A program made the position numbers and the translations under genes. 64,000 nt of DNA from a virus: IMG/VR virus record IMGVR_UViG_3300000301_000012, positions 1 to 64,000 of that record. One strand, given 5' to 3'. A model generated the notes under the pieces. The model worked only from the letters and a program-made list of their open reading frames with translations. It was not told where the DNA came from and ran no database searches. This document shows, piece by piece, positions 2,022 to 41,869 of this stretch (positions are counted from its first letter, which is position 1; every line of letters begins with the position of its first letter).

Positions 2022-2840
2022 TTACTTTTTATAATTTTGCCCAATCTCTAAACAATCATATATAAAATTATCCAAAATTTCTCTAGCATATTCACTTCTA
2101 ACCTTCGACTTTTTTAATTCTTTTTCGGTTCCATATTTCTTTAAAAATAACTGATAAAAAGATTCTAATTGCTCCATAAAATAATCTCTAAAAGTTTTGG
2201 CTTTATCCAATTCAACAGGCAAAGTTTTCAATTCTCTAAGAAAATCAATATAATTATTAGTAACTTTTAAAGAATATTCAAAATCATTTGAGCTATAATA
2301 ACGTTTTAAAAAATCATAAAGTCGAATAATGTGAACTAATTGTTTTGGGTCATATCCATATTTCTCAATAGTTTCTTTCTTTCCTTCCGTCGGTTTGCTA
2401 AAAAGTTTAACTTTACTTAGCGCCATTCCCCTAGAAACATTTGCAAGAGTTAAAGGGCTTCTATTAGCAATTTTATCTCTCTTTTTTAAAAGATTAAAAA
2501 CGGGTTCTGTAAATTTAGGATTATACATATAATAAGGAGTATAAAGAATCTCCAAGAAATTAATATTTCCTTTATAAAAAGAATTACATATTAATCTAAT
2601 ATCTTGAATTAGATTAAGTCCGCCACTCTCATTATCTTTCTCTTTTGAAATCTTTTTCTTATCGAGATACAACTCGCGCTTTGTAGGGAGAATAATAGTC
2701 TTTACATCTACATCACTTTGTTCAGTTTCAATTCCATAGTTTTGGGAGCCATAAAGACCCATATAAACAAAAGGATGGCTATCTTTATAAATATCTTTAT
2801 AAAATAAGCCCATCTCATTTAAAATATTTGTAACCTCCAT
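2022..2840 (-). CDS. Pol-beta-fold nucleotidyltransferase, RlaP-like
   Basis: The translation has GSQNYGIETEQSDVDVK, the GS...D.D motif of the predicted-nucleotidyltransferase (RNA-repair-associated RlaP) family. Stop is TAA. This is the first gene of the AT-rich part. Confidence 0.65.
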   Translation of the reverse strand: MEVTNILNEMGLFYKDIYKDSHPFVYMGLYGSQNYGIETEQSDVDVKTIILPTKRELYLDKKKISKEKDNESGGLNLIQDIRLICNSFYKGNINFLEILYTPYYMYNPKFTEPVFNLLKKRDKIANRSPLTLANVSRGMALSKVKLFSKPTEGKKETIEKYGYDPKQLVHIIRLYDFLKRYYSSNDFEYSLKVTNNYIDFLRELKTLPVELDKAKTFRDYFMEQLESFYQLFLKKYGTEKELKKSKVRSEYAREILDNFIYDCLEIGQNYKK

Positions 2841-3511: not shown

Positions 3512-3598
3512 TAGACATAGTGAAGGAATCGAACCCTCTCAAGTAAAATTTTACAGATTTTCTTTTTAACCAAAAAATTTTTGCTGTTACTATGTCTA
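3512..3598 (-). ncRNA. tRNA-like RNA (GUA anticodon-like loop, canonical T-arm, aberrant D region); member of the ACAGCAAUU-box family
   Basis: A 9-bp terminal stem TAGACATAG/CTATGTCTA is followed by the box TAACAGCAA and the hairpin AAAAT-CUGUAAA-ATTTT. T-arm is GAGGG-TTCGATT-CCTTC. No normal D-arm is present. Confidence 0.45.
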
Positions 3599-3951: not shown

Positions 3952-4091
3952 TGGTACTAGCGGGTGGAATCGAACCACCGGCAACAGGTTTTGGTGAGTT
4001 AAAAAGGTCTTGCACCTTCATCTTTTTAAAGGTTTTACTTTTAAACTATTAACCCATAAGACCTGCCCCATCACCACTTGGGTACGCTAGT
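3952..4091 (-). tRNA. interrupted tRNA; becomes a perfect 76-nt tRNA-Ile(UAU)-type cloverleaf if the 64-nt insert is removed
   Basis: Acceptor ACTAGCG/CGCTAGT, D-arm CCCA-AGTGGTGA-TGGG, anticodon stem CAGGT/ACCTG, T-arm GGTGG-TTCGATT-CCACC, then A-CCA. The loop halves CUUAU and AA are separated by 3992-4055. Confidence 0.6.
3992..4055 (-). ncRNA. tRNA-shaped insert lacking an anticodon arm, nested in an anticodon loop
   Basis: Reads GGGTTAA-TA-GTTT-AAAAGTA-AAAC-(12 nt)-GAAGG-TGCAAGA-CCTTT-TTAACTC-A-CCA. It has a 7-bp acceptor stem, D-arm, T-arm, discriminator and CCA. Confidence 0.5.
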
Positions 4092-4099
4092 ATATAGAC

Positions 4100-4159
4100 A
4101 AGACACCTTTGTTTCACAAATTGGCCATTTGTTGCAAGAAAAATTGCTGTTAGTGTCTT
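4100..4159 (-). ncRNA. acceptor-stem-like hairpin spacer with conserved box (family member)
   Basis: Terminal stem AAGACAC/GTGTCTT, then box TAACAGCAATT. Inner hairpins are GCAA-TTTTTC-TTGC and ACAAA-TGGCCAA-TTTGT. Confidence 0.4.
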
Positions 4160-5676: not shown

Positions 5677-5746
5677 CAACAAATAGATGTTTGGGACACA
5701 CACAGTGGAGGGCACGGTCAGATTCGAACTGACGACACGCTGGTTA

Positions 5747-6415
5747 TGGCGTCAACTATGAGATTTGAACTCATATCTTTTCCCATTCTATATCAGAGTA
5801 TTTTTGAATATCTTTTCTCTTTGACGGTAAATTATACTTTTTACACCATTTACGAACAGCATTATCTGAAACTTTAAACATTTTTCCAATTGTAGTAAAC
5901 GGAGTATTTCTTATTAAGGATTTTAATTCTTCTCTACTTATTATATTTTTTTCTCTTAAACATTTCTAACATAACCCTGTTTTATTATTTGCAATTTCTT
6001 TTTTACAAGAAGAACAATAATATTGATGTTTTTTTGGATTTTTTAATTCTTCTGCTATATTTTTGTCATAAATTCTTTTTTGCTCAAGATATTCTTTAGT
6101 ATAAAAACCATCATGAACTTCTCTATGACAATTTGCACATAATAAAATACATTTCTAAATTTCTTGTAAATCTTCTTCCAAATTATGACAAATTCCTTTA
6201 GAAGAAATTCCGTACTCTTTTTCTTCAGGTCTTATATGATGAAATTCTAATGCACTTTTGCTTCTATTATAGCCACAAATATTACATTTATCACCACAAA
6301 CCCTTATTAAATTTTCTTTTCTTCTTCGTCTAAAATCAGAAGTTGCCTAACTACTCATAAATTTCACCATCAAACAATAGAATACAAAGAAAAATATTTC
6401 TTATACTAAGCTGAC
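5747..6415 (-). mobile_element. tRNA-shaped shell carrying an HNH endonuclease gene, nested in an anticodon loop
   Basis: The 5' end reads GTCAGCT-TA-GTAT-AAGAA-ATAT and the 3' end ATGAG-TTCAAAT-CTCAT-AGTTGAC-G-CCA. The acceptor stem has 7 bp including one G-U. The ORF replaces the anticodon arm. None of the ACGG...CCGTGCYAA group I core seen in the other three introns is present. Confidence 0.5.
5771..6358 (-). CDS. HNH homing endonuclease (3 in-frame TAG)
   Basis: ATG at 6358 and TGA at 5773-5771. The translation has CGDKCNICGY...EFHHI...CANCHREVH. TAG falls in the context GLC-TAG-KC. Not in the ORF track because TAG breaks it. Confidence 0.8.
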
Positions 6416-6451
6416 ACAGCCAGCTGCTCTGACCAACTGAGCTACGCACCC

Positions 6452-6977: not shown

Positions 6978-7509
6978 TGGTGGGCCATCTTGGTATCGAA
7001 CCAAGCGAGTCACAATGACAGCGGCTTTTGGAGATAGAATTTAGATTTGAACTAAAAAGTTGCAAGTATTAAATCCTTGGTTATTGGAATTTGGGATAGT
7101 TCTTAAAACTATTCTTGAAAGATTTCCAGATTTACGAATCTCTTCAACGGGAATTACAAAAAGATTCTTCATATCATCAGCACAAAATAATAAATCTACT
7201 GGATGATTTAGTAAATTATCATAAACTTGTCCCTTTGTTCCGCCTTTGTTTACCAATGAAATCTCCTTATTTTTACTAGCTGTAAATTTACATTGTACTG
7301 TTTGAAAAATATCATCTTTTTCTACAACTAAATCATACCATTGTGTATCATTAATTGGTAAACTAACAGTATAACCATTGGAACCAAAATATGCGATAGC
7401 AAGACTTAATCCCGCTCTTCCTTTATCCCTATTATTTAATAATTGCATAACCCTCCTCCATTAGGATTCTACCACAGGCCGCCCCGTCTCCTTAACGGAA
7501 TACTGACCC
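6978..7509 (-). mobile_element. tRNA-shaped shell carrying a PD-(D/E)XK endonuclease gene (free-standing)
   Basis: The 5' end reads GGGTCAG-TA-TTCC-GTTAA-GGAG and the 3' end CTTGG-TTCGATA-CCAAG-ATGGCCC-A-CCA, with 6 of 7 acceptor pairs. The architecture matches 5747-6415. Confidence 0.4.
7041..7448 (-). CDS. PD-(D/E)XK homing-endonuclease-like protein (I-Ssp6803I-like family)
   Basis: 135 aa with GGAGGAGGG before the ATG. The translation KGRAGLSLAIAYFGSNGYTVSLPINDTQWYDLVVEKDDIFQTVQCKF matches the D...(D/E)xK pattern of the small PD-(D/E)XK intron endonucleases. Confidence 0.7.
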   Translation of the reverse strand: MQLLNNRDKGRAGLSLAIAYFGSNGYTVSLPINDTQWYDLVVEKDDIFQTVQCKFTASKNKEISLVNKGGTKGQVYDNLLNHPVDLLFCADDMKNLFVIPVEEIRKSGNLSRIVLRTIPNSNNQGFNTCNFLVQI

Positions 7510-7596
7510 ATATAATGGCGGTTGGAGCTTATTTTAATTCGACGTCCGCCAACTCGAATGAAGGTTGAGTTATTGTCATTATACCTACAATATGAC

Positions 7597-7672: not shown

Positions 7673-7906
7673 ATAGAAATAGGAGTGACCGCCCTCCTAT
7701 TGGGTCTGTTGTTCCACTCCTATCGGTAGTTTTTAAATGGTGTTACCGACACCGATTTGCGTCAGGAGGAGTATCCTCCCCAATGGAATTTGTTGATACA
7801 ATCATAGAACCATCTCCTTCCAATAAACGCTTTTTAAGACTTAGCGTGGTACGCATTATTAAGAGGCGTGCTAAGTTCATTTCTACAAGAGGAACTTCCC
7901 ACTTGG
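7673..7906 (-). ncRNA. unassigned structured spacer immediately 3' of the suppressor tRNA
   Basis: No credible ORF. Hairpins are AGGAG-TGACCGCC-CTCCT, GGAGGA-GTA-TCCTCC, CGGTA...TACCG and CTTAGC...GCTAAG enclosing GCGT-GGT-ACGC. Confidence 0.35.
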
Positions 7907-7982
7907 TGGCAGCGGTTCTCAGAATCGAACTGAGTCCATCGCTTTTAGAGAGCGAGGCGCTAAACCGTTACGCTAAACCGCA
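7907..7982 (-). tRNA. amber suppressor tRNA(CUA), Gln-like identity features
   Basis: Anticodon stem TCGCT/AGCGA with loop CUCUAAA; the anticodon is complementary to plus-strand tag at 7946-7948. D-arm GCGT-AACGGTTTA-GCGC and T-arm CTCAG-TTCGATT-CTGAG. Acceptor TGCGGTT/AACCGCT has a U1-U72 mismatch, G2-C71 and discriminator G. CCA is followed by a second CCA. Confidence 0.85.
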
Positions 7983-8097: not shown

Positions 8098-8162
8098 AAG
8101 GCACATAAGTAACAATAATTTCTCACCCAAGAAAAGCTGTTATTAATTGCTGTTTGCGCCTT
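8098..8162 (-). ncRNA. acceptor-stem-like hairpin spacer with conserved box (family member)
   Basis: Terminal stem AAGGCGCA/TGTGCCTT (one G-U pair), followed by the box AACAGCAATT. Confidence 0.35.
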
Positions 8163-8214: not shown

Positions 8215-8337
8215 AAGATACCGTTAGAATAATTATTGCCTTACCATTTAGGCGATTTCTAAAATGATTAGAAAGTAAGAATCGAACTTACAATAGATAA
8301 TTTCCAAAAAATAATTATTGGTTGCTGTAGGTATCTT
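8215..8337 (-). ncRNA. circularly permuted, capped tRNA-like RNA on a basal stem (YrlA/Y-RNA-like architecture)
   Basis: The minus strand reads: basal AAGATACC, box TACAGCAA, then ATTAT, CTATT, T-arm GTAAG-TTCGATT-CTTAC. The acceptor TTTCTAA-TCATT-TTAGAAA is closed by a loop. Then come TC, D-arm GCCT-AAATGGTA-AGGC, A, ATAAT and basal GGTATCTT. Confidence 0.55.
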
Positions 8338-8491: not shown

Positions 8492-8640
8492 ACGTTTAGC
8501 GGCCGTTGCCATCCGCCATTCGTATCCTCTTATGCAGCAACGAACCGAGGAATTATAGGTTTTTATTTGTAAGCTACCTACAAACTTACTGGTAGGAGTG
8601 GCGGGACTCGAACCCGCACGACCACAAGCCAGCTGATTTT

Positions 8641-9387
8641 CATACTACTCTATGTCACCATAGCCGCATTACTGCGTTGTAGTCTGGACTATGTCTTCAC
8701 CATATCTCTCAACTTAGGTGGTTGGTATATAGTCTCTACACATTTATTTGGTGCAGTTCTTTCCACGATAGGAATCTGTTAAAGCGTGACAATTTGGACA
8801 TAATAATTCATAATTTTCTATACTATTATTATGTCTATTGCCATCTTTATGATGTAACTCTAATGGAATTGGATTGCCAAGCCATTCGGTTAAACCGCAA
8901 TGTTCACACTTATGTTCTTTATACCCTTCTTCTAACAACTTTATTCTAACTTTGTTTGATTGAATATCTTTGCTATTTTCAAGATATTGAACTAATGTCA
9001 TTTTTTCTTTAACTTTAGAATAACCTTTTCCACTTTGATTTCCATCATACTTTAAGCCTAATCTCTCTAATACGCTATTAATAGTTTTAGGATTACATCC
9101 TAATTCTCTTGCCATATAAGCTTTAGATCTGTTCTCAGAAATCCATCGTTCAATTTCTGCCTTACGCTCTAAAATATCTGTTCTCATAAGTATCACTCCT
9201 TTTTTTTCTTTCTACTTATAAGTAGAAAAGGAACACACTTATTACAGAATTTTGATGCGTAATCCAAAATTTAGCACGGCGTTCTGTGTTTGCCTTCGCC
9301 GTTTAGCCAACTTCTACTTTCACAATTTCTTGTGAAGCACTCTCTATCCAAAAGATAGCACTTCTTTTTAGGAAGTGAAACACATTA
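8641..9387 (-). mobile_element. group I intron with HNH homing-endonuclease ORF
   Basis: The 5' splice site follows U and the 3' splice site follows G. The core element GGCTAAACGGCG...ACGCCGTGCTAAATT resembles the P4-P6/P7 region of phage group I introns such as T4 td. The insertion site is the classical tRNA-Leu(UAA) position. Confidence 0.7.
8744..9187 (-). CDS. HNH homing endonuclease (intron-encoded)
   Basis: The translation has CEHCGL...LELHHKDGNRHNNSIENYELLCPNCHA. AGGAGTG lies 6 nt before the ATG at 9187. Stop is TAA. Confidence 0.85.
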   Translation of the reverse strand: MRTDILERKAEIERWISENRSKAYMARELGCNPKTINSVLERLGLKYDGNQSGKGYSKVKEKMTLVQYLENSKDIQSNKVRIKLLEEGYKEHKCEHCGLTEWLGNPIPLELHHKDGNRHNNSIENYELLCPNCHALTDSYRGKNCTK

Positions 9388-9587
9388 AAGTCAGCAGCGT
9401 ATACCGATTTCGCCACACTCCCATAGCGTCCCTCTCGTTTCATAGCTCATTGAGCCGATTTTGCAGGCTTGGGACTGCCGATGGCACGATTAACGCTAAA
9501 TGCCGAACTGAGAGAGTGAAAGGAAAGGAAAAATCTCTCTCATTCAACATTAATATTATATCAAAATTTTTAGTTTATTTCAAATTT

Positions 9588-10654: not shown

Positions 10655-12130
10655 TTAAACTTTACCAATCCAAACGCAATCATACATAGGATTATTAAGA
10701 GTTTCAATCATAACATCCCAACCAGTCTTACCGTTCAACGCAGCAGTCAGTTCTTTAAAAGAAGAAGGAGAACCGCCACTTACATGGATAAGATCAGGAC
10801 TATTACCCAAGAAAGTATTGCTACGAGCGTAAACATTCCAAAGAACTAGCTTAGGAAGATTAAAACCGTATTTAGCAAATTTCTTCCTCTGAATTTCTAC
10901 GAAATCATCATTAATATTATCTCTTTGAGAAATCCAGTCAATTTCCATATCAGAAATAACGATAATAGCTTTAGGCATTTCATCGTTAGGAATCTTATAG
11001 TCAATACCAGTTCTCAATACTAAATTGAAAGCTTCATTTAAATCAGTATTATATCCAAAATCCGTCCCTTCGGCCTTTACTATTTTTTGATAAATGTCGT
11101 CACTCTCTTTAAGAGTAATAAAATGAGGATTATCAGTAAAAGTCATGTAAAGATTATGGAAATAACCTTTATTTCTTTCAGCAAAATAAACTGCCAAACT
11201 AGTAGACATTGCCATAGGACGTCCAGACATAGAACCAGATACATCAGCCATAACAATATAGTTATTTTCACCTTCGACATAATTAGGAAGTCCATTCCAC
11301 TGAGCCTGGAGTAAATCTCTAGCTTGCATATTACAGCTACTAATTCTATCTGATTTTTCCTTAAGGTCGTAAGGATAAAGGACAGAACTATTGACTTTAG
11401 ATTCGCCAGTCTTTAAACCTGCAACATATTCATTAAATCTATCTTCATCATGTCTACGGAAAGCATCGGAATAATTCTTCATAGCATAAGAAGGAACATT
11501 ATCATAAATAATTTCATCCCAATTATTCGCAGACATATCTCTCTCAACAATTCGAATAGCATGACGCAACCTAGACAGAGCTTTACGATAAGTTCTGCTA
11601 GTCATACCCAACTCACCAATGGCGCGCCGTGCAAGATGAATAGTCTCAGGAGAAGAAGCATTTTCAGAAGGCATCCACTTACCCAGAAGACTTACAGAAT
11701 TGCCCTTAGCGCAATTAACTAGATCTTCTTTAAAGGTTTCCTTAATCAAATCCCACATTACCTTCTCGCATTTTGTTCCAGTAAGAACAAAAAGAGAATC
11801 CCAACGATTAAAATGGGGAATCAACTTAATATTATTCTCTACATATTTAGGCGCAATATTTGCCAAAGTTTTTAGACAAATACGGAAAGTTCTGCGCTCA
11901 CCTAAACCGCCACGAATGTTACCGGCATAAAATAACATCTTAGTAGTCAATTCAGGATTTTCTCTAAAAGAATTTGTAAACATTTCACTAATGTCTTTCA
12001 CACTTCGACTTCTCAAAGCACCGATGACACCAAAAAGAGATAAAACATTACTATCCAAACAGGAATAAGCGTTCATTCCATTTTCAGTAAACTTATCGGT
12101 AGTATTCTTAGCGGCTTGTGCAAAATTCAT
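10655..12130 (-). CDS. DUF2828-type protein with C-terminal vWA domain (Ro60/TROVE-like architecture)
   Basis: 491 aa. The N-terminal region reads TENGMNAY...LFYAGNIRGGLGERRTFR. The C-terminal vWA domain has the MIDAS motif DVSGSMSG. The TROVE-plus-vWA order matches Ro60. Confidence 0.75.
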   Translation of the reverse strand: MNFAQAAKNTTDKFTENGMNAYSCLDSNVLSLFGVIGALRSRSVKDISEMFTNSFRENPELTTKMLFYAGNIRGGLGERRTFRICLKTLANIAPKYVENNIKLIPHFNRWDSLFVLTGTKCEKVMWDLIKETFKEDLVNCAKGNSVSLLGKWMPSENASSPETIHLARRAIGELGMTSRTYRKALSRLRHAIRIVERDMSANNWDEIIYDNVPSYAMKNYSDAFRRHDEDRFNEYVAGLKTGESKVNSSVLYPYDLKEKSDRISSCNMQARDLLQAQWNGLPNYVEGENNYIVMADVSGSMSGRPMAMSTSLAVYFAERNKGYFHNLYMTFTDNPHFITLKESDDIYQKIVKAEGTDFGYNTDLNEAFNLVLRTGIDYKIPNDEMPKAIIVISDMEIDWISQRDNINDDFVEIQRKKFAKYGFNLPKLVLWNVYARSNTFLGNSPDLIHVSGGSPSSFKELTAALNGKTGWDVMIETLNNPMYDCVWIGKV

Positions 12131-12166: not shown

Positions 12167-12277
12167 AGACGCAATAGCTCCAAAGAAGGGACTCGAACCC
12201 TTAAATACTGAATTTAACGTTCAGAGCTTTTTCCTTTTAAGCTACTTCGGAAATCTCTCGCTTCGCTGTTCGCGTCT
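12167..12277 (-). ncRNA. stem-enclosed tRNA-like RNA directly upstream of the Ro60-like gene
   Basis: Basal pairing AGACGC (12277-12272 complement) with GCGTCT (12172-12167 complement). The box-like GAACAGCG follows the 5' arm. It encloses the cloverleaf at 12178-12251. Confidence 0.45.
12178..12251 (-). tRNA. tRNA-like cloverleaf with UUA in the anticodon position and G33 (probably not a decoding tRNA)
   Basis: Acceptor TCCGAAG/CTTTGGA and D-arm GCTT-AAAAGGAAA-AAGC. Anticodon stem CTGAA/TTCAG with loop CGUUAAA. T-arm AAGGG-TTCGAGT-CCCTT, no CCA. Confidence 0.5.
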
Positions 12278-26963: not shown

Positions 26964-28048
26964 AGAACTTAAAGAACTGTCCAAAAATGCTTTACTCTTA
27001 ACCAAGAGGGTCTACATATAAATGTAAGGATGGATTACATATAAATGTAGGCTAACGGTATCAGTGAAATAAGACTTCTCATTGAAACTATAAAGAGATA
27101 ATGGGATATATCCAAAGACGAATAAGCTGACTAAGAAACCCTAAACCTGAAATATGGTGAGATAAAGGGAATACCGTGGGAATCAGAATTAATCCATTCC
27201 TTCTTATTAAAAAGGAGGAATTAAAATGATAGGTATTTATAAAATAACCAAAAAAGAAAATGGCAAATCTTATATAGGACAATCTAACAATATAGAACGA
27301 AGATTTAAAGAACATCGACATAAGACAGATATTCCTATTGAATTAGCAATTCAAAAATATGGAGTAGATGCTTTTGAATACAAAATAATTGAGGAATGTT
27401 CTTTAGATGAGTTAGATGAAAAAGAAAAGTATTGGATAGCATATTATAATACATATAAAGGTTTCGGTTATAATTGTAATGAAGGCGGTGGAAATAACAG
27501 ATGTGAAAATAACGGAAGAACTAAATTAACTAATGAAGAAGTTAGTTATATTAGAGAATGTTATGATTTACATATGCGCCGACGTGAAGTATATAAAAAG
27601 TTTAAAGATAAAATTTCTTTTGGTGCTTTTGCTAGTATTTGGGATGGCTCTACTTGGAAAGAAATTAAGCCAGAAGTATATACCGAAGATAATAAGAAAT
27701 ATTATATGTATGAAGCTACCAATGGCGGAAAATCAGAAAGCGCTTGTTTAACAGATGAAGAAGTTATGAAATGTAGAACACGCTATATGAAAGAAACCGC
27801 AAAACAAATATATGAAGATTATAAAGAAAAAATAACTTATCAAGCTTTTCAAGCTATGTTATGGGGAAGAAGCTATAAAAATTTACCCATATATAGCAAA
27901 AAGAAAAAGGAATGGATTAATAAATGAAGCCTGTAACGACTATCTCCGTGAAGGAGAGTACAATTACTATTGGTACGTGATTGGAAAGAGCATTCTCATT
28001 TAATGAGTAAAATATAGTCTAAGCCATTTGAAAAAATGGAACATCTTG
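26964..28048 (+). mobile_element. group I intron with GIY-YIG ORF in the topoisomerase gene
   Basis: The 5' splice site follows U (gat|a) and the 3' splice site follows G (cttg|agt). Splicing restores in-frame ...VDAD-SDGYHIG.... Core elements are GCTAACGGTAT...ATACCGTGGGAA and TGTAACGACTATC, both shared with the dnaE intron. Confidence 0.7.
27226..27927 (+). CDS. GIY-YIG homing endonuclease
   Basis: The translation begins MIGIYKITKKENGKSYIGQSNNIERRFKEH. AAGGAGGA lies before the ATG. Confidence 0.85.
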   Translation: MIGIYKITKKENGKSYIGQSNNIERRFKEHRHKTDIPIELAIQKYGVDAFEYKIIEECSLDELDEKEKYWIAYYNTYKGFGYNCNEGGGNNRCENNGRTKLTNEEVSYIRECYDLHMRRREVYKKFKDKISFGAFASIWDGSTWKEIKPEVYTEDNKKYYMYEATNGGKSESACLTDEEVMKCRTRYMKETAKQIYEDYKEKITYQAFQAMLWGRSYKNLPIYSKKKKEWINK

Positions 28049-40936: not shown

Positions 40937-41863
40937 TAGCTAATGTGGCATAAGCCTCCTCTCTATGGTGACATAGTTAAAATAAACGCTGTGAACGCCT
41001 TTAGCAAGCGGTGTCCGAAAGGGCTAACGGGGAAAATCTTATAAAAATAAAGACAATCCCGTGCCAAGTTACTTTATCATTGGAGAGCCAATAATAAAGT
41101 AAAAGGTGTAACGACTATCCGAAAGGAGTAGGGTGGATTTGCTACCACTCGAAGCGCAGCGGCTCTCATAATATTTAAAGTAGGTGATATTATGGGATAT
41201 ATTTATAAAATTCAAAATAAAATAAATGATAAAATTTATATTGGACAAACAGTAGCTAGTCCACAAAGAAGATGGACTTAGCATAAAAACAATATAAAAA
41301 GAGATTACTTATAGCATATAGCTTTATACAAAGCTATGAATAAATATGGTATCGAAAATTTTACTTTTGAAGTTTTAGAAGAAGTTTCAAATAATTTGCT
41401 CGATGAACGAGAAAAATATTGGATAAAAAATTTTAATAGCTATGGTAAAAATGGTTATAATATGACTCTAGGTGGAAGATGTACTAAACTTTATAATTGG
41501 GATGAACTTGAAATAATTGAGTTATACTATAAAGAGAAATCTGCTAGAAAAGTTGCAAAAATAATTGGATGCGACCATAGTACTGTTGATAAAATTTTAA
41601 ATGCAAATAATATTCCTAGATTTTCTATTGCATAGCAAATTAGTAAAAGAATAGTCCTAGAAAAAGATGATAAATATTTATTTGAAACGACTTCTGATGC
41701 TGCTAAATGGCTAATAGAAACTGGAAAAACAAGAAGTAAAAATTTTCATAGCATAAGATAGCAAATTTCAGAAAAAGCAAGAGTAAATGGAATTTATTTT
41801 GGATTTAAAGTATATTATGAGAGTAAGATATAGTCTACCCCACTAGAAATAGTGGATAAGGTG
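40937..41863 (+). mobile_element. group I intron with GIY-YIG ORF in dnaE
   Basis: The 5' splice site follows U (aggt|t) and the 3' splice site follows G (ggtg|tt). Splicing gives ...LFPWR-F-MNPERVSPLDIDID..., the conserved RF(L/M)NPER motif. The core GCTAACGGGGAA...GACAATCCCGTGCCAAGTT is close to the T4 td intron core. TGTAACGACTATCC is shared with the topoisomerase intron. Confidence 0.75.
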
Positions 41864-41869
41864 TTATGA
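41192..41869 (+). CDS. GIY-YIG homing endonuclease (5 in-frame TAG)
   Basis: The translation reads MGYIYKIQNKINDKIYIGQT...RRWT-TAG-HKNN. Track ORF 41336-41635 is in the same frame. The first non-TAG stop is TGA at 41867. Confidence 0.75.

Follow-up and report, generated by a model that had tools for sequence, protein, structure and literature searches.

In this work, we analysed a 64-kb window (positions 1-64,000 of the IMG/VR record IMGVR_UViG_3300000301_000012), which belongs to a large AT-rich phage genome with TAG as a sense codon, and found that a 669-nt insert (6415-5747, minus strand) splits the anticodon loop of a transfer RNA gene, tRNA-Asn(GUU). The insert is itself shaped like a tRNA, and in the place of the anticodon arm it carries a gene for an HNH homing endonuclease. 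An earlier note on this DNA had described just such a tRNA-shaped shell with an HNH gene lodged in an anticodon loop; each of its structural claims was upheld, its coordinates for the tRNA halves and for the parts of the insert all match on the minus strand, and the outer halves make a full cloverleaf once the 669 nt are left out. The architecture of the element, its exact ends, its membership in a family, the covariation of its stems, the empty sites in relatives and the intact nuclease reading frame are directly established. As an overall explanation we favour, with somewhat more confidence than doubt, a mobile tRNA-shaped intervening sequence that would be cut out by RNase P and an RNase Z-type enzyme, its flanks being joined by an RNA ligase, and that would spread by homing.

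The interrupted tRNA-Asn gene and its empty sites

The 5′ exon of the outer gene comprises the 5′ strand of the acceptor stem, the D-arm, the 5′ strand of the anticodon stem (GCTGG) and loop positions 32-35 (CTGT). The 3′ exon begins with loop positions 36-38 (TAA) and continues with the 3′ strand of the anticodon stem, the variable loop, the T-arm, the 3′ strand of the acceptor stem, a T and CCA. In its intron mode, ARAGORN called one tRNA with a 669-nt intron at c[5706,6451]; since this mode sets the intron at 37/38, mislabels the outer tRNAs (as His, SeC or Phe) and fuses neighbours, the identities it assigned were not used. Forty-nine variants of the junction were submitted to ARAGORN. Excision from G1 to CCA gave the loop CTGTTAA and a tRNA-Asn(GTT), the sole Asn outcome among the 49, and the other 48 variants gave different anticodons or loops of the wrong size. 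Furthermore, an IMG/VR search anchored in the D-arm returned 49 stretches, more than 40 of which are uninterrupted tRNAs with CTGT/TAA (Asn; the slash marks the insertion point); the rest comprise a few with CTGTCAC (Asp) and a remainder that is interrupted.

A syntenic relative, L177 (ENA ERZ16268063 scaffold_62, 115 kb), was reached via its gene for the RNA-repair protein RlaP. Its gene order is that of the window (DUF2828, the tRNA array in the same order, RlaP), and its genes for Tyr(GTA), Asn(GTT) and Ile(TAT) are uninterrupted. When the three split tRNAs of the window (Asn, Tyr and Ile(UAU)) were spliced in silico, they aligned with the L177 genes without gaps across the junctions. The two tRNA-Asn sequences are ~86% identical and differ by three compensatory pairs with no disruptive change, and a single compensatory pair is the whole difference between the spliced tRNA-Ile and L177:7022-7097. 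The gap-free alignments fix the ends of the insert as G1 and the final A of CCA, and identify the outer gene as the orthologue of a normal tRNA. The earlier note had left the junction ambiguous, with shifts of 1-2 nt giving GAU, CAU or GUG in place of Asn, and had advised a comparison with relatives lacking the insert; the L177 alignment, together with the more than 40 uninterrupted CTGT/TAA tRNAs, settles the matter as Asn, and L177 provides an exact case of presence and absence.

Contigs L001 and L076, like the window, have the CTGT/TAA site filled; in L177 and over 40 further tRNA-Asn genes it is empty. A search of IMG/VR with the window's own exon sequence gave no match, i.e., no identical empty-site allele. 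ARAGORN and manual inspection detected no Asn, Tyr or Ile(UAU) genes in the window array besides the interrupted ones.

Shell structure, family and the nuclease gene

In the insert, a 7-bp acceptor adjoins a 5-bp T stem with its 7-nt T loop; a discriminator base followed by CCA and a D-arm/T-loop elbow complete the features expected of a tRNA-like processing substrate. When the open reading frame (ORF) was swapped for a tetraloop, the centroid fold of the precursor was a nested double cloverleaf (z = -3.7). The same fold contains a hairpin TTTTC/GAAAA that may replace the anticodon arm, and ORF-less shells have a short hairpin at the equivalent position.

Covariation was assessed in ten shells whose selection took no account of stem pairing: protein homology had yielded four of them, and a D-loop/T-loop pattern that leaves the stem bases unspecified (N) the other six. 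All 120 pair cells held standard pairs, and 11 of the 12 pairs showed changes on both sides; none of 500 shuffles equalled this pairing, and slid-partner controls were 30-53% paired. Four of the five T-stem pairs covary across shells. A comparison of the window with L001 and L076 shows compensatory substitutions in all three stems (acceptor, D and T): the acceptor stem reads GTTAGTT/AATTAGC in L001 and GTCAGGC/GTCTGGC in L076, the T-stem of L001 (ATAAG/CTTAT) has A-T for G-C, and the stop codon of the nuclease gene changes from TGA to TAA along with its pairing partner. With 11 of the 12 pairs covarying across the ten shells, an NCCA end and a D-arm, the insert fits a substrate of tRNA end processing.

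The element is one of a family that numbers 39 distinct nested elements, spread over about 35 phage contigs and 11 types of tRNA (duplicates and two weak matches removed). The members were collected by a scan for inserts of 45-1800 nt whose 3′ end comprises a T-arm, a 7-nt strand able to pair with the first 7 nt, and N+CCA, with the further demand that exact removal leave a 7-nt loop closed by a 5-bp stem and that ARAGORN accept the product. With CCA as the terminal trinucleotide, 33 matches were obtained in 1.19 Mb and 19 in a further 1.08 Mb; with control trinucleotides (11 in the first set, 7 in the second), there were none. Two matches in L280 (a His with a=1 and an Ile-GAT) were dropped as weak. 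The host tRNAs are Asn, Tyr, Ile(UAU), Thr, Lys, Gln, Glu (UUC and CUC), Gly, Arg(UCU) and Leu(UAA), and the insertion point is 34/35, 35/36 or 36/37. The base at -1 is a pyrimidine in all 26 tabulated elements, CCA is invariant in all 39 shells, and exact removal restores a canonical 7-nt loop with U33 and a purine at 37 in every one of the 39. The D-stem, which was not a scan criterion, is paired 4/4 in 36 of the 39 shells with 15 pair combinations, against 41% for shuffled sequence.

The members can be arranged as a series, from a complete tRNA within a tRNA through ORF-less shells to nuclease-bearing ones. ORF-less shells measure 50-158 nt (most 50-112 nt), and these exceed the Rfam gathering score for tRNA; those of 59-89 nt, including a 64-nt insert of the window, have a short hairpin instead of the anticodon arm, and the smallest, of 50 nt, comes near to an acceptor/T-arm minihelix. 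In shells of 445-907 nt, the loop of this substitute hairpin is filled by a nuclease gene, namely HNH (in Asn and Glu), GIY-YIG (Gly and Arg) or PD-(D/E)XK (Tyr). Protein-seeded searches recovered HNH inserts at the same tRNA-Asn site in L001 (51% identity) and L076 (53%), as well as a related HNH element in a tRNA-Glu(CTC) of L094. The earlier note had taken the element for a mobile version of the 64-nt insert at 3992-4055, and the kinship is supported, as the HNH-bearing shells of L076 and L094 have the D-loop AAAAGTA and the T-loop TGCAAGA of that insert. A third member in the window, the tRNA-Tyr insert at 7473-7029 (GGTAGAA...TTTAG-TTCAAAT-CTAAA-TTCTATC-T-CCA), had escaped that note. In L191, a 75-nt ORF-less shell with an oversized loop (Rfam tRNA 47.9 bits) occupies the CTGT/TAA site of tRNA-Asn. 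In L077 (3632-3707), a complete and normal tRNA-Asn(GTT), 76 nt including CCA, sits in the loop of a tRNA-Lys(TTT) after position 36. At the L077 locus, a close relative of the HNH gene was seen free-standing, directly downstream of a tRNA. An identical 59-nt insert was found in two diverged, intact variants of tRNA-Ile(UAU) from 11 contigs.

The D-loop/T-loop pattern gave 20 matches in viral contigs, 14 nested shells and one real tRNA among them. In 596 Gb of cellular genomes it gave 23 matches, none with a complementary acceptor and hence no shell, and as far as the pattern reaches, this subtype of shell appears confined to phages. Searches with the shell-end pattern of the Asn element matched only the contig of L001, and blastn of the nested tRNA-Ile against GenBank phages gave no match. 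A free-standing tRNA-His(GTG) with D-loop AAAAGTA and T-loop TGCAAGA lies at about 7480-7555 (minus strand) of L160 (IMGVR_UViG_3300023214_000351). Its sharing of these unusual loops suggests that the shells may descend from real tRNAs of this odd type.

The ORF in the shell, noted earlier as 195 codons with three TAG in the place of the anticodon arm, is borne out as an HNH gene by Pfam, PHROG and its sequence. It matches phrog_2255 (HNH) at E=2e-22 and exceeds the PF01844 cut-off narrowly (21.7 against 21.4 bits). An alternative start at ATG 6370 would give 199 codons; the stop TGA (5773-5771) lies within the 5′ strand of the T-stem, and a probable ribosome-binding site directly precedes the start codon, on the 3′ side of the D-arm and about 25 nt away from it. 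The protein is 51-56% identical to the intact ORFs of L001 and L076, which keep the motif EFHH...N...CANCH, and two TAG positions are common with L001. Blastn of the target region gave only generic HNH similarity of about 70%. A C-terminal DNA-binding module is common to the Asn HNH and the GIY-YIG proteins, and its last codons overlap the T-stem. This shared module indicates a probable modular shuffling of homing endonucleases directed at tRNA genes. The module, ...SDNA[IV][RK]KWCKxYN[LM]P..., was seen joined to HNH, GIY-YIG and LAGLIDADG domains. Relatives of the HNH protein also stand free beside tRNA genes in L077 and L014.

No ORF of the window ends in TAG; in-frame TAGs are absent from the replication genes and number up to 34 in late/structural genes. 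Suppressor-type tRNAs lie at 7907-7982 and 12177-12251, one with the anticodon CTA and the other with TTA, possibly a reader of UAA. The three TAGs of the HNH gene, as against none in the PD-(D/E)XK gene of the tRNA-Tyr shell, suggest that the two may be expressed at different times.

Candidate routes of removal and spread

We propose the following sequence of events. RNase P would take the insert as a pre-tRNA and cut directly 5′ of G1, leaving the 5′ exon with a 3′-OH; RNase P should act on any domain of tRNA shape in a bacterial transcript, its minimal substrate being the acceptor/T-arm minihelix. The second cut, just after the CCA of the insert, would be made by an RNase Z/BN-type endonuclease or by an enzyme of the phage and would leave the 3′ exon with a 5′-phosphate. 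The outer helices (acceptor, D, anticodon and T) would keep the exons in place, and an ATP-dependent RNA ligase would seal tRNA-Asn(GUU), with GAGCAGCTGGCTGT/TAACCAGCGTGTCG as the expected junction in the ligated RNA; a nicked anticodon loop in a folded tRNA is the classical substrate of phage Rnl1-type ligases. The freed insert would be a messenger RNA (mRNA) with tRNA ends, from which the HNH protein could be produced only once TAG is read as sense. The protein would then cut insert-free tRNA-Asn genes of co-infecting relatives, and repair would copy the element in. Removal at the RNA level, the identity of the three enzymes and homing are what we infer here from established enzymology.

Several points weigh against this model. 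Among 18 window ORFs scanned with Pfam across the 64 kb, there was no gene for an RNA ligase, RNase Z or RNase P, and the ligase that the window does encode was rejected as an RNA ligase, as it matches ATP-dependent DNA ligase; four L177 ORFs scanned with Pfam likewise included no RNA ligase. The weakest step is the cut after CCA. The RNase Z of many bacteria is blocked by an encoded CCA, and their 3′ ends are trimmed by exonucleases, to which the 3′ exon would be lost; cutting exactly after CCA is known only for certain enzymes of the RNase Z/BN group (Thermotoga maritima RNase Z and E. coli RNase BN). Furthermore, L177 has RlaP beside its array yet no nested shells, so that the presence of RlaP is not specific to the element. 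The signal of selection on the outer tRNA could in part be explained by recent homing into healthy genes, and cleavage and ligation are both predicted steps, read from DNA only.

We also considered a degenerate or reduced group I or group II intron with an unrecognised core, which is very improbable. Its position in the anticodon loop after a U and its homing-endonuclease gene are those of tRNA group I introns, and a group-I-like intron in L041 uses the same 35/36 site of tRNA-Asn. The earlier note had seen no group I core and had advised a scan with Rfam covariance models for group I and group II. This was run at gathering thresholds and as permissive 5.5-kb and 0.8-kb scans around the element, and gave no match to group I, group II or ribozyme families at E<=10. 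As a positive control, the true group I intron at 8641-9387 was detected weakly (20.1 bits, E=0.015); the Rfam group I model is weak on ORF-bearing introns, but the small-region scan that detects the control intron gave no signal for the element. The motif CCGTGCYAA, said to mark all three group I introns of the window, is indeed absent from the element, but only two exact copies exist in the window (9271 and 41059) rather than three. The 5′ exon ends in U, as for group I, whereas the insert ends in A and not in the obligatory G (A in all 39 members); its non-coding part amounts to about 57 nt + 26 nt, and the ORF-less homologues of 50-158 nt fall below the group I core minimum of ~200 nt. As for group II, the insert starts with GUCAG and ends in CCA, encodes HNH only, lacks the GUGYG start, domain V and a reverse transcriptase, and its ends form a covarying tRNA fold. 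Judged by these features of its sequence, the 669-nt element is not a group I or group II intron. Other identities were rejected as well. For a bulge-helix-bulge intron, whose splice sites lie in two 3-nt bulges on either side of a 4-bp helix, the geometry is wrong: a 7-bp helix directly adjoins the 5′ site, and the 3′ site comes 4 nt (GCCA) after the other strand of that helix, with which the centroid fold agrees. For transfer-messenger RNA (tmRNA), neither ARAGORN nor Rfam gave a match at the locus, and pair 3-70 is C-G, with no G3-U70. In a decoding tRNA, the ORF would not stand in place of the anticodon arm, and ARAGORN finds a tRNA in one of nine inserts tested (L077). For an integrase-type insertion into a tRNA gene, there is neither an integrase nor a duplicated tRNA end.

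The evidence on the boundaries and on selection for the outer tRNA applies equally if the insert is removed and the tRNA restored by a different chemistry, which we regard as a rather unlikely alternative. A metal-independent endonuclease or a small ribozyme would leave 2′,3′-cyclic phosphate and 5′-OH ends for RtcB to join, or a phage splicing enzyme would use the tRNA shape as a handle; no precise cut after an encoded CCA would then be needed. RlaP-type repair genes also associate with RtcB-type systems, L177 encodes near its array a P-loop kinase/HD phosphohydrolase fusion and a metallophosphoesterase, which are enzymes of the end-healing type, and a sub-threshold twister-like match lies elsewhere in the window's array. 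The conserved core, however, is just what RNase P requires, the scanned window ORFs include no RtcB or splicing-endonuclease gene, and no ribozyme family matches in or beside the element at E<=10. It is unlikely, too, that no splicing takes place at all and that the outer tRNA-Asn is a mere casualty, the tRNA-like ends serving to release or stabilise the endonuclease mRNA (in L077, the inner tRNA) from a polycistronic transcript. Such punctuation is established for plant mitochondrial t-elements and MALAT1/mascRNA, and phage tRNAs are often dispensable; the syntenic L177 does well with uninterrupted genes, and ligation is a predicted step with no ligase for RNA among the scanned window ORFs. 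Yet the outer halves are undecayed and differ from their uninterrupted orthologues in a compensatory manner, the split genes are the array's only ones for Asn, Tyr and Ile(UAU), and ORF-less shells, which cannot home, persist in intact tRNAs of many contigs and in two diverged tRNA-Ile variants. A canonical loop with U33 and R37 in all 39 cases would be needless for a destructive insertion. As to chance resemblance or an assembly artefact, the sequence does come from a metagenomic assembly of an AT-rich genome, in which 41% of shuffles yield a D-like stem, but the recurrence of the same architecture in about 35 independent contigs from many samples, with divergence and covariation, makes this scarcely credible, as do the empty controls with other trinucleotides and the contrast between 0 shells (23 background matches) in 596 Gb of cellular DNA and 14 shells among 20 matches in viral contigs.

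Returning to the tRNA-shaped intervening sequence excised through RNase P, its mobility is supported by the interchangeable nucleases, by ORF-less and ORF-bearing forms at the same site (L191 and the window) and by the free-standing HNH relatives, all of which point to an element that moves. Selection on the interrupted genes appears likely from the purely compensatory changes in the outer tRNAs, the 59-nt insert shared by two tRNA-Ile variants and the sole-copy status of the Asn, Tyr and Ile(UAU) genes.

Array context, known systems and meaning

The tRNA array lies on the minus strand at about 3.3-9.4 kb, between the RlaP gene and a DUF2828/vWA gene (Table 1).

Table 1. Positions of the nested elements, their parts and the neighbouring genes (window coordinates unless a contig is named)
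Feature	Position	Strand	Remarks
5′ exon, outer tRNA-Asn(GUU)	6416..6451	-	GGGTGCG-TA-GCTC...GAGC-A-GCTGG-CTGT; orthologue L177:5444-5520
3′ exon, outer tRNA-Asn	5706..5746	-	TAA-CCAGC-GTGTC-GTCAG-TTCGAAT-CTGAC-CGTGCCC-T-CCA
tRNA-shaped insert, G1 to terminal CCA	5747..6415	-	ends fixed by alignment to uninterrupted tRNAs
Insert acceptor 5′ strand GTCAGCT	6409..6415	-	pairs 7/7 with AGTTGAC (5751-5757)
Insert positions 8-9 (TA) and D-arm GTAT-AAGAA-ATAT	6394..6408 (D-arm 6406-6394)	-	from sequence
TTTTC, possible 5′ strand of hairpin replacing the anticodon arm	6389..6393	-	partner GAAAA 5778-5782; tentative
HNH homing-endonuclease ORF	5771..6358	-	195 codons from ATG 6358, three in-frame TAG; PF01844, PHROG 2255
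Insert T-arm ATGAG-TTCAAAT-CTCAT	5758..5774	-	from sequence; compensatory change in L001
Insert acceptor 3′ strand AGTTGAC, discriminator G and CCA	5747..5757 (AGTTGAC 5757-5751; G-CCA 5750-5747)	-	from sequence
Sister element in tRNA-Ile(UAU)	3952..4091	-	64-nt ORF-less shell 3992-4055; Rfam tRNA 40.9 bits
Sister element in tRNA-Tyr(GUA)	6978..7509	-	445-nt shell 7029-7473, after U35; uninterrupted orthologue L177:4613-4699
PD-(D/E)XK ORF of the Tyr shell	7041-7448	-	PF11645; crosses the T-loop, stops in the T-stem 3′ strand
Carriers of the C-terminal module	L012:2270-3230, L014:2628-3177, L184, L239, L284, HNH ORF of the insert		free-standing by tRNA genes or inside shells
RlaP-family RNA-repair nucleotidyltransferase	2022..2840	-	Pfam PF10127; flanks the array, context only
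DUF2828/vWA (TROVE-like) gene	10655-12130		flanks the array; Pfam
Group I intron in tRNA 8590-9422	8641-9387	-	ends in G; CCGTGCTAA motif at 9271; HNH ORF 8744-9187

The synteny of RlaP and the array is kept in L177; an exact look-up of the window's RlaP protein found it not on record. In large (jumbo) phages, RlaP and RNA ligases are distributed in parallel (PMC7824862; PMC12776372). As a context for RNA sealing, RlaP is suggestive, not specific. The DUF2828/vWA gene neighbours the tRNA array not only in the window but also in L177 and in Bacillus phages of the Tsamsa type (Tsamsa NC_023007, 146-151 kb). Its closest matches among named cultured phages are in Bacillus siphophages (about 40% identity), hinting that the host may be among the Bacillota; two unannotated human-faecal phage fragments scored marginally higher.

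Several further features were observed in and around the array. The true group I intron is inserted at 34/35 of a tRNA that reads Leu(UAA), with the loop CTT/AAAA and a long variable arm (Phe according to the ARAGORN intron mode). Directly upstream of this tRNA-Leu, at 9426-9496 (minus strand), lies a sub-threshold match to twister-P1 (34.2 bits, where the gathering score is 67.2; E=2e-5 when 1.1 kb was scanned), which may be a self-cleaving 5′ processing element. An abiF RNA match of 36.8 bits (threshold 37) was seen at 7839-7875 (minus strand), between the suppressor tRNA(CTA) and tRNA-Glu. The motif (T)AACAGCAA recurs in array spacers at 3581-3587, 4144-4150, 8147-8153 and 8322-8328 (minus strand), and also in spacers of L001 and L012. 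Four of the 15 window copies fall within 5 kb, all on the array strand, and in some spacers (4144-4150, 8147-8153) the motif stands between short complementary arms, upstream of a TATAT box that comes before the following tRNA; a role as a promoter or in processing is conceivable. The group-I-like intron of L041 (100-770) ends in ...aaag and has a PD-(D/E)XK ORF; as it lies at the 35/36 site of tRNA-Asn that the 669-nt insert also occupies, two intron types use one insertion site. Elsewhere in the window, a second CCGTGCCAA motif at 41059-41067 (plus strand) lies beside a GIY-YIG ORF (41192-41869) between two fragments of DNA polymerase III alpha, and another GIY-YIG ORF (27226-27927) lies between topoisomerase genes; both regions are probably group I introns in replication genes.

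Of the known systems, the group I introns of bacterial, plastid and phage tRNA genes, such as the classical one of tRNA-Leu(UAA) and the window's own at 8641-9387, are alike in lying in the anticodon loop after a pyrimidine, in bearing a homing-endonuclease ORF in a peripheral loop, in being present or absent among relatives and in occurring with or without the ORF. The element differs in having no ribozyme core or terminal G, too little non-coding RNA and a tRNA fold ending in CCA, so that proteins or RNase P would have to act in trans to remove it. Archaeal and eukaryal tRNA introns, cut by the splicing endonuclease and joined by RtcB or Trl1, share the location near the anticodon loop and, under the model proposed here, the logic of cutting and ligation by proteins; the archaeal ones can also hold functional RNAs or endonuclease genes. 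Unlike bulge-helix-bulge introns, however, the element has splice sites flanking a 7-bp acceptor helix plus NCCA, at 34/35, 35/36 or 36/37 instead of 37/38; moreover, it resides in a bacterial virus, and its expected exon ends are 3′-OH and 5′-phosphate rather than cyclic phosphate and 5′-OH. To our knowledge, bacteria have no tRNA splicing endonuclease. In t-elements, mitochondrial tRNA punctuation and MALAT1/mascRNA, a tRNA-shaped module that does not decode is likewise cut by RNase P and RNase Z at its two ends, and mascRNA, about 60 nt long, has no normal anticodon arm; those modules separate neighbours and nothing is rejoined, whereas the element lies inside a tRNA whose halves need religation.

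Like tmRNA, the element has a tRNA-like end domain (acceptor, T-arm and CCA) and an ORF in the place of the anticodon arm, but there is no relation in sequence or by Rfam, and its ORF encodes a full enzyme with a start of its own instead of a tag reading frame; the element is, moreover, embedded in another tRNA. The repair system of phage T4 (Pnkp and Rnl1) and RtcB/RlaP modules seal breaks in the anticodon loop of a folded tRNA, and RlaP flanks the array studied here; in T4 the break is made by a host defence nuclease, whereas that of the element would be programmed by the gene. Free-standing homing endonucleases of the T4 SegB type spread by cutting in or near tRNA genes, as the free-standing relatives in L077 and L014 may do; in the window, by contrast, the nuclease gene lies within a tRNA gene, surrounded by an RNA shell that would be removable.

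A full-text literature search, which covered few papers from subscription journals, brought up no account of phage introns with a tRNA shape or of tRNA genes nested within phage tRNA genes. By their architecture, the shell elements appear new as a class, distinct from group I, group II and bulge-helix-bulge introns and from tmRNA, and the suggestion made earlier of a new kind of tRNA-borne mobile element gains support from the family, the empty sites and the mismatch with known introns. We give an even chance to the broader proposition that they form a further class of introns, excised through tRNA mimicry by RNase P and an RNase Z-type cut and joined by an RNA-repair ligase, which would have arisen from tRNA genes, with or without homing-endonuclease genes, inserting into tRNA genes, and whose product would be a tmRNA-like, tRNA-capped mRNA.

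In its normal mode ARAGORN misses three of the roughly two dozen tRNAs of the array, and Rfam scores just the 64-nt inner shell of one. As standard tRNA finders miss genes split by shells, the tRNA repertoires of large gut phages, including stop-recoded ones, are probably undercounted. If the proposed mechanism is true, RNase P, tRNA 3′ processing and RNA ligation would together constitute a splicing machine in bacteria, and selfish endonuclease genes would have a new route to become harmless to their host gene. Phage RNA ligases and repair modules would gain a housekeeping job besides the repair of defence damage. The link between tRNA punctuation, tRNA repair and the origin of introns would become testable, and the element would be a natural analogue of the tmRNA architecture. 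The shell may also offer a portable scaffold for excising or stabilising RNAs in bacteria.

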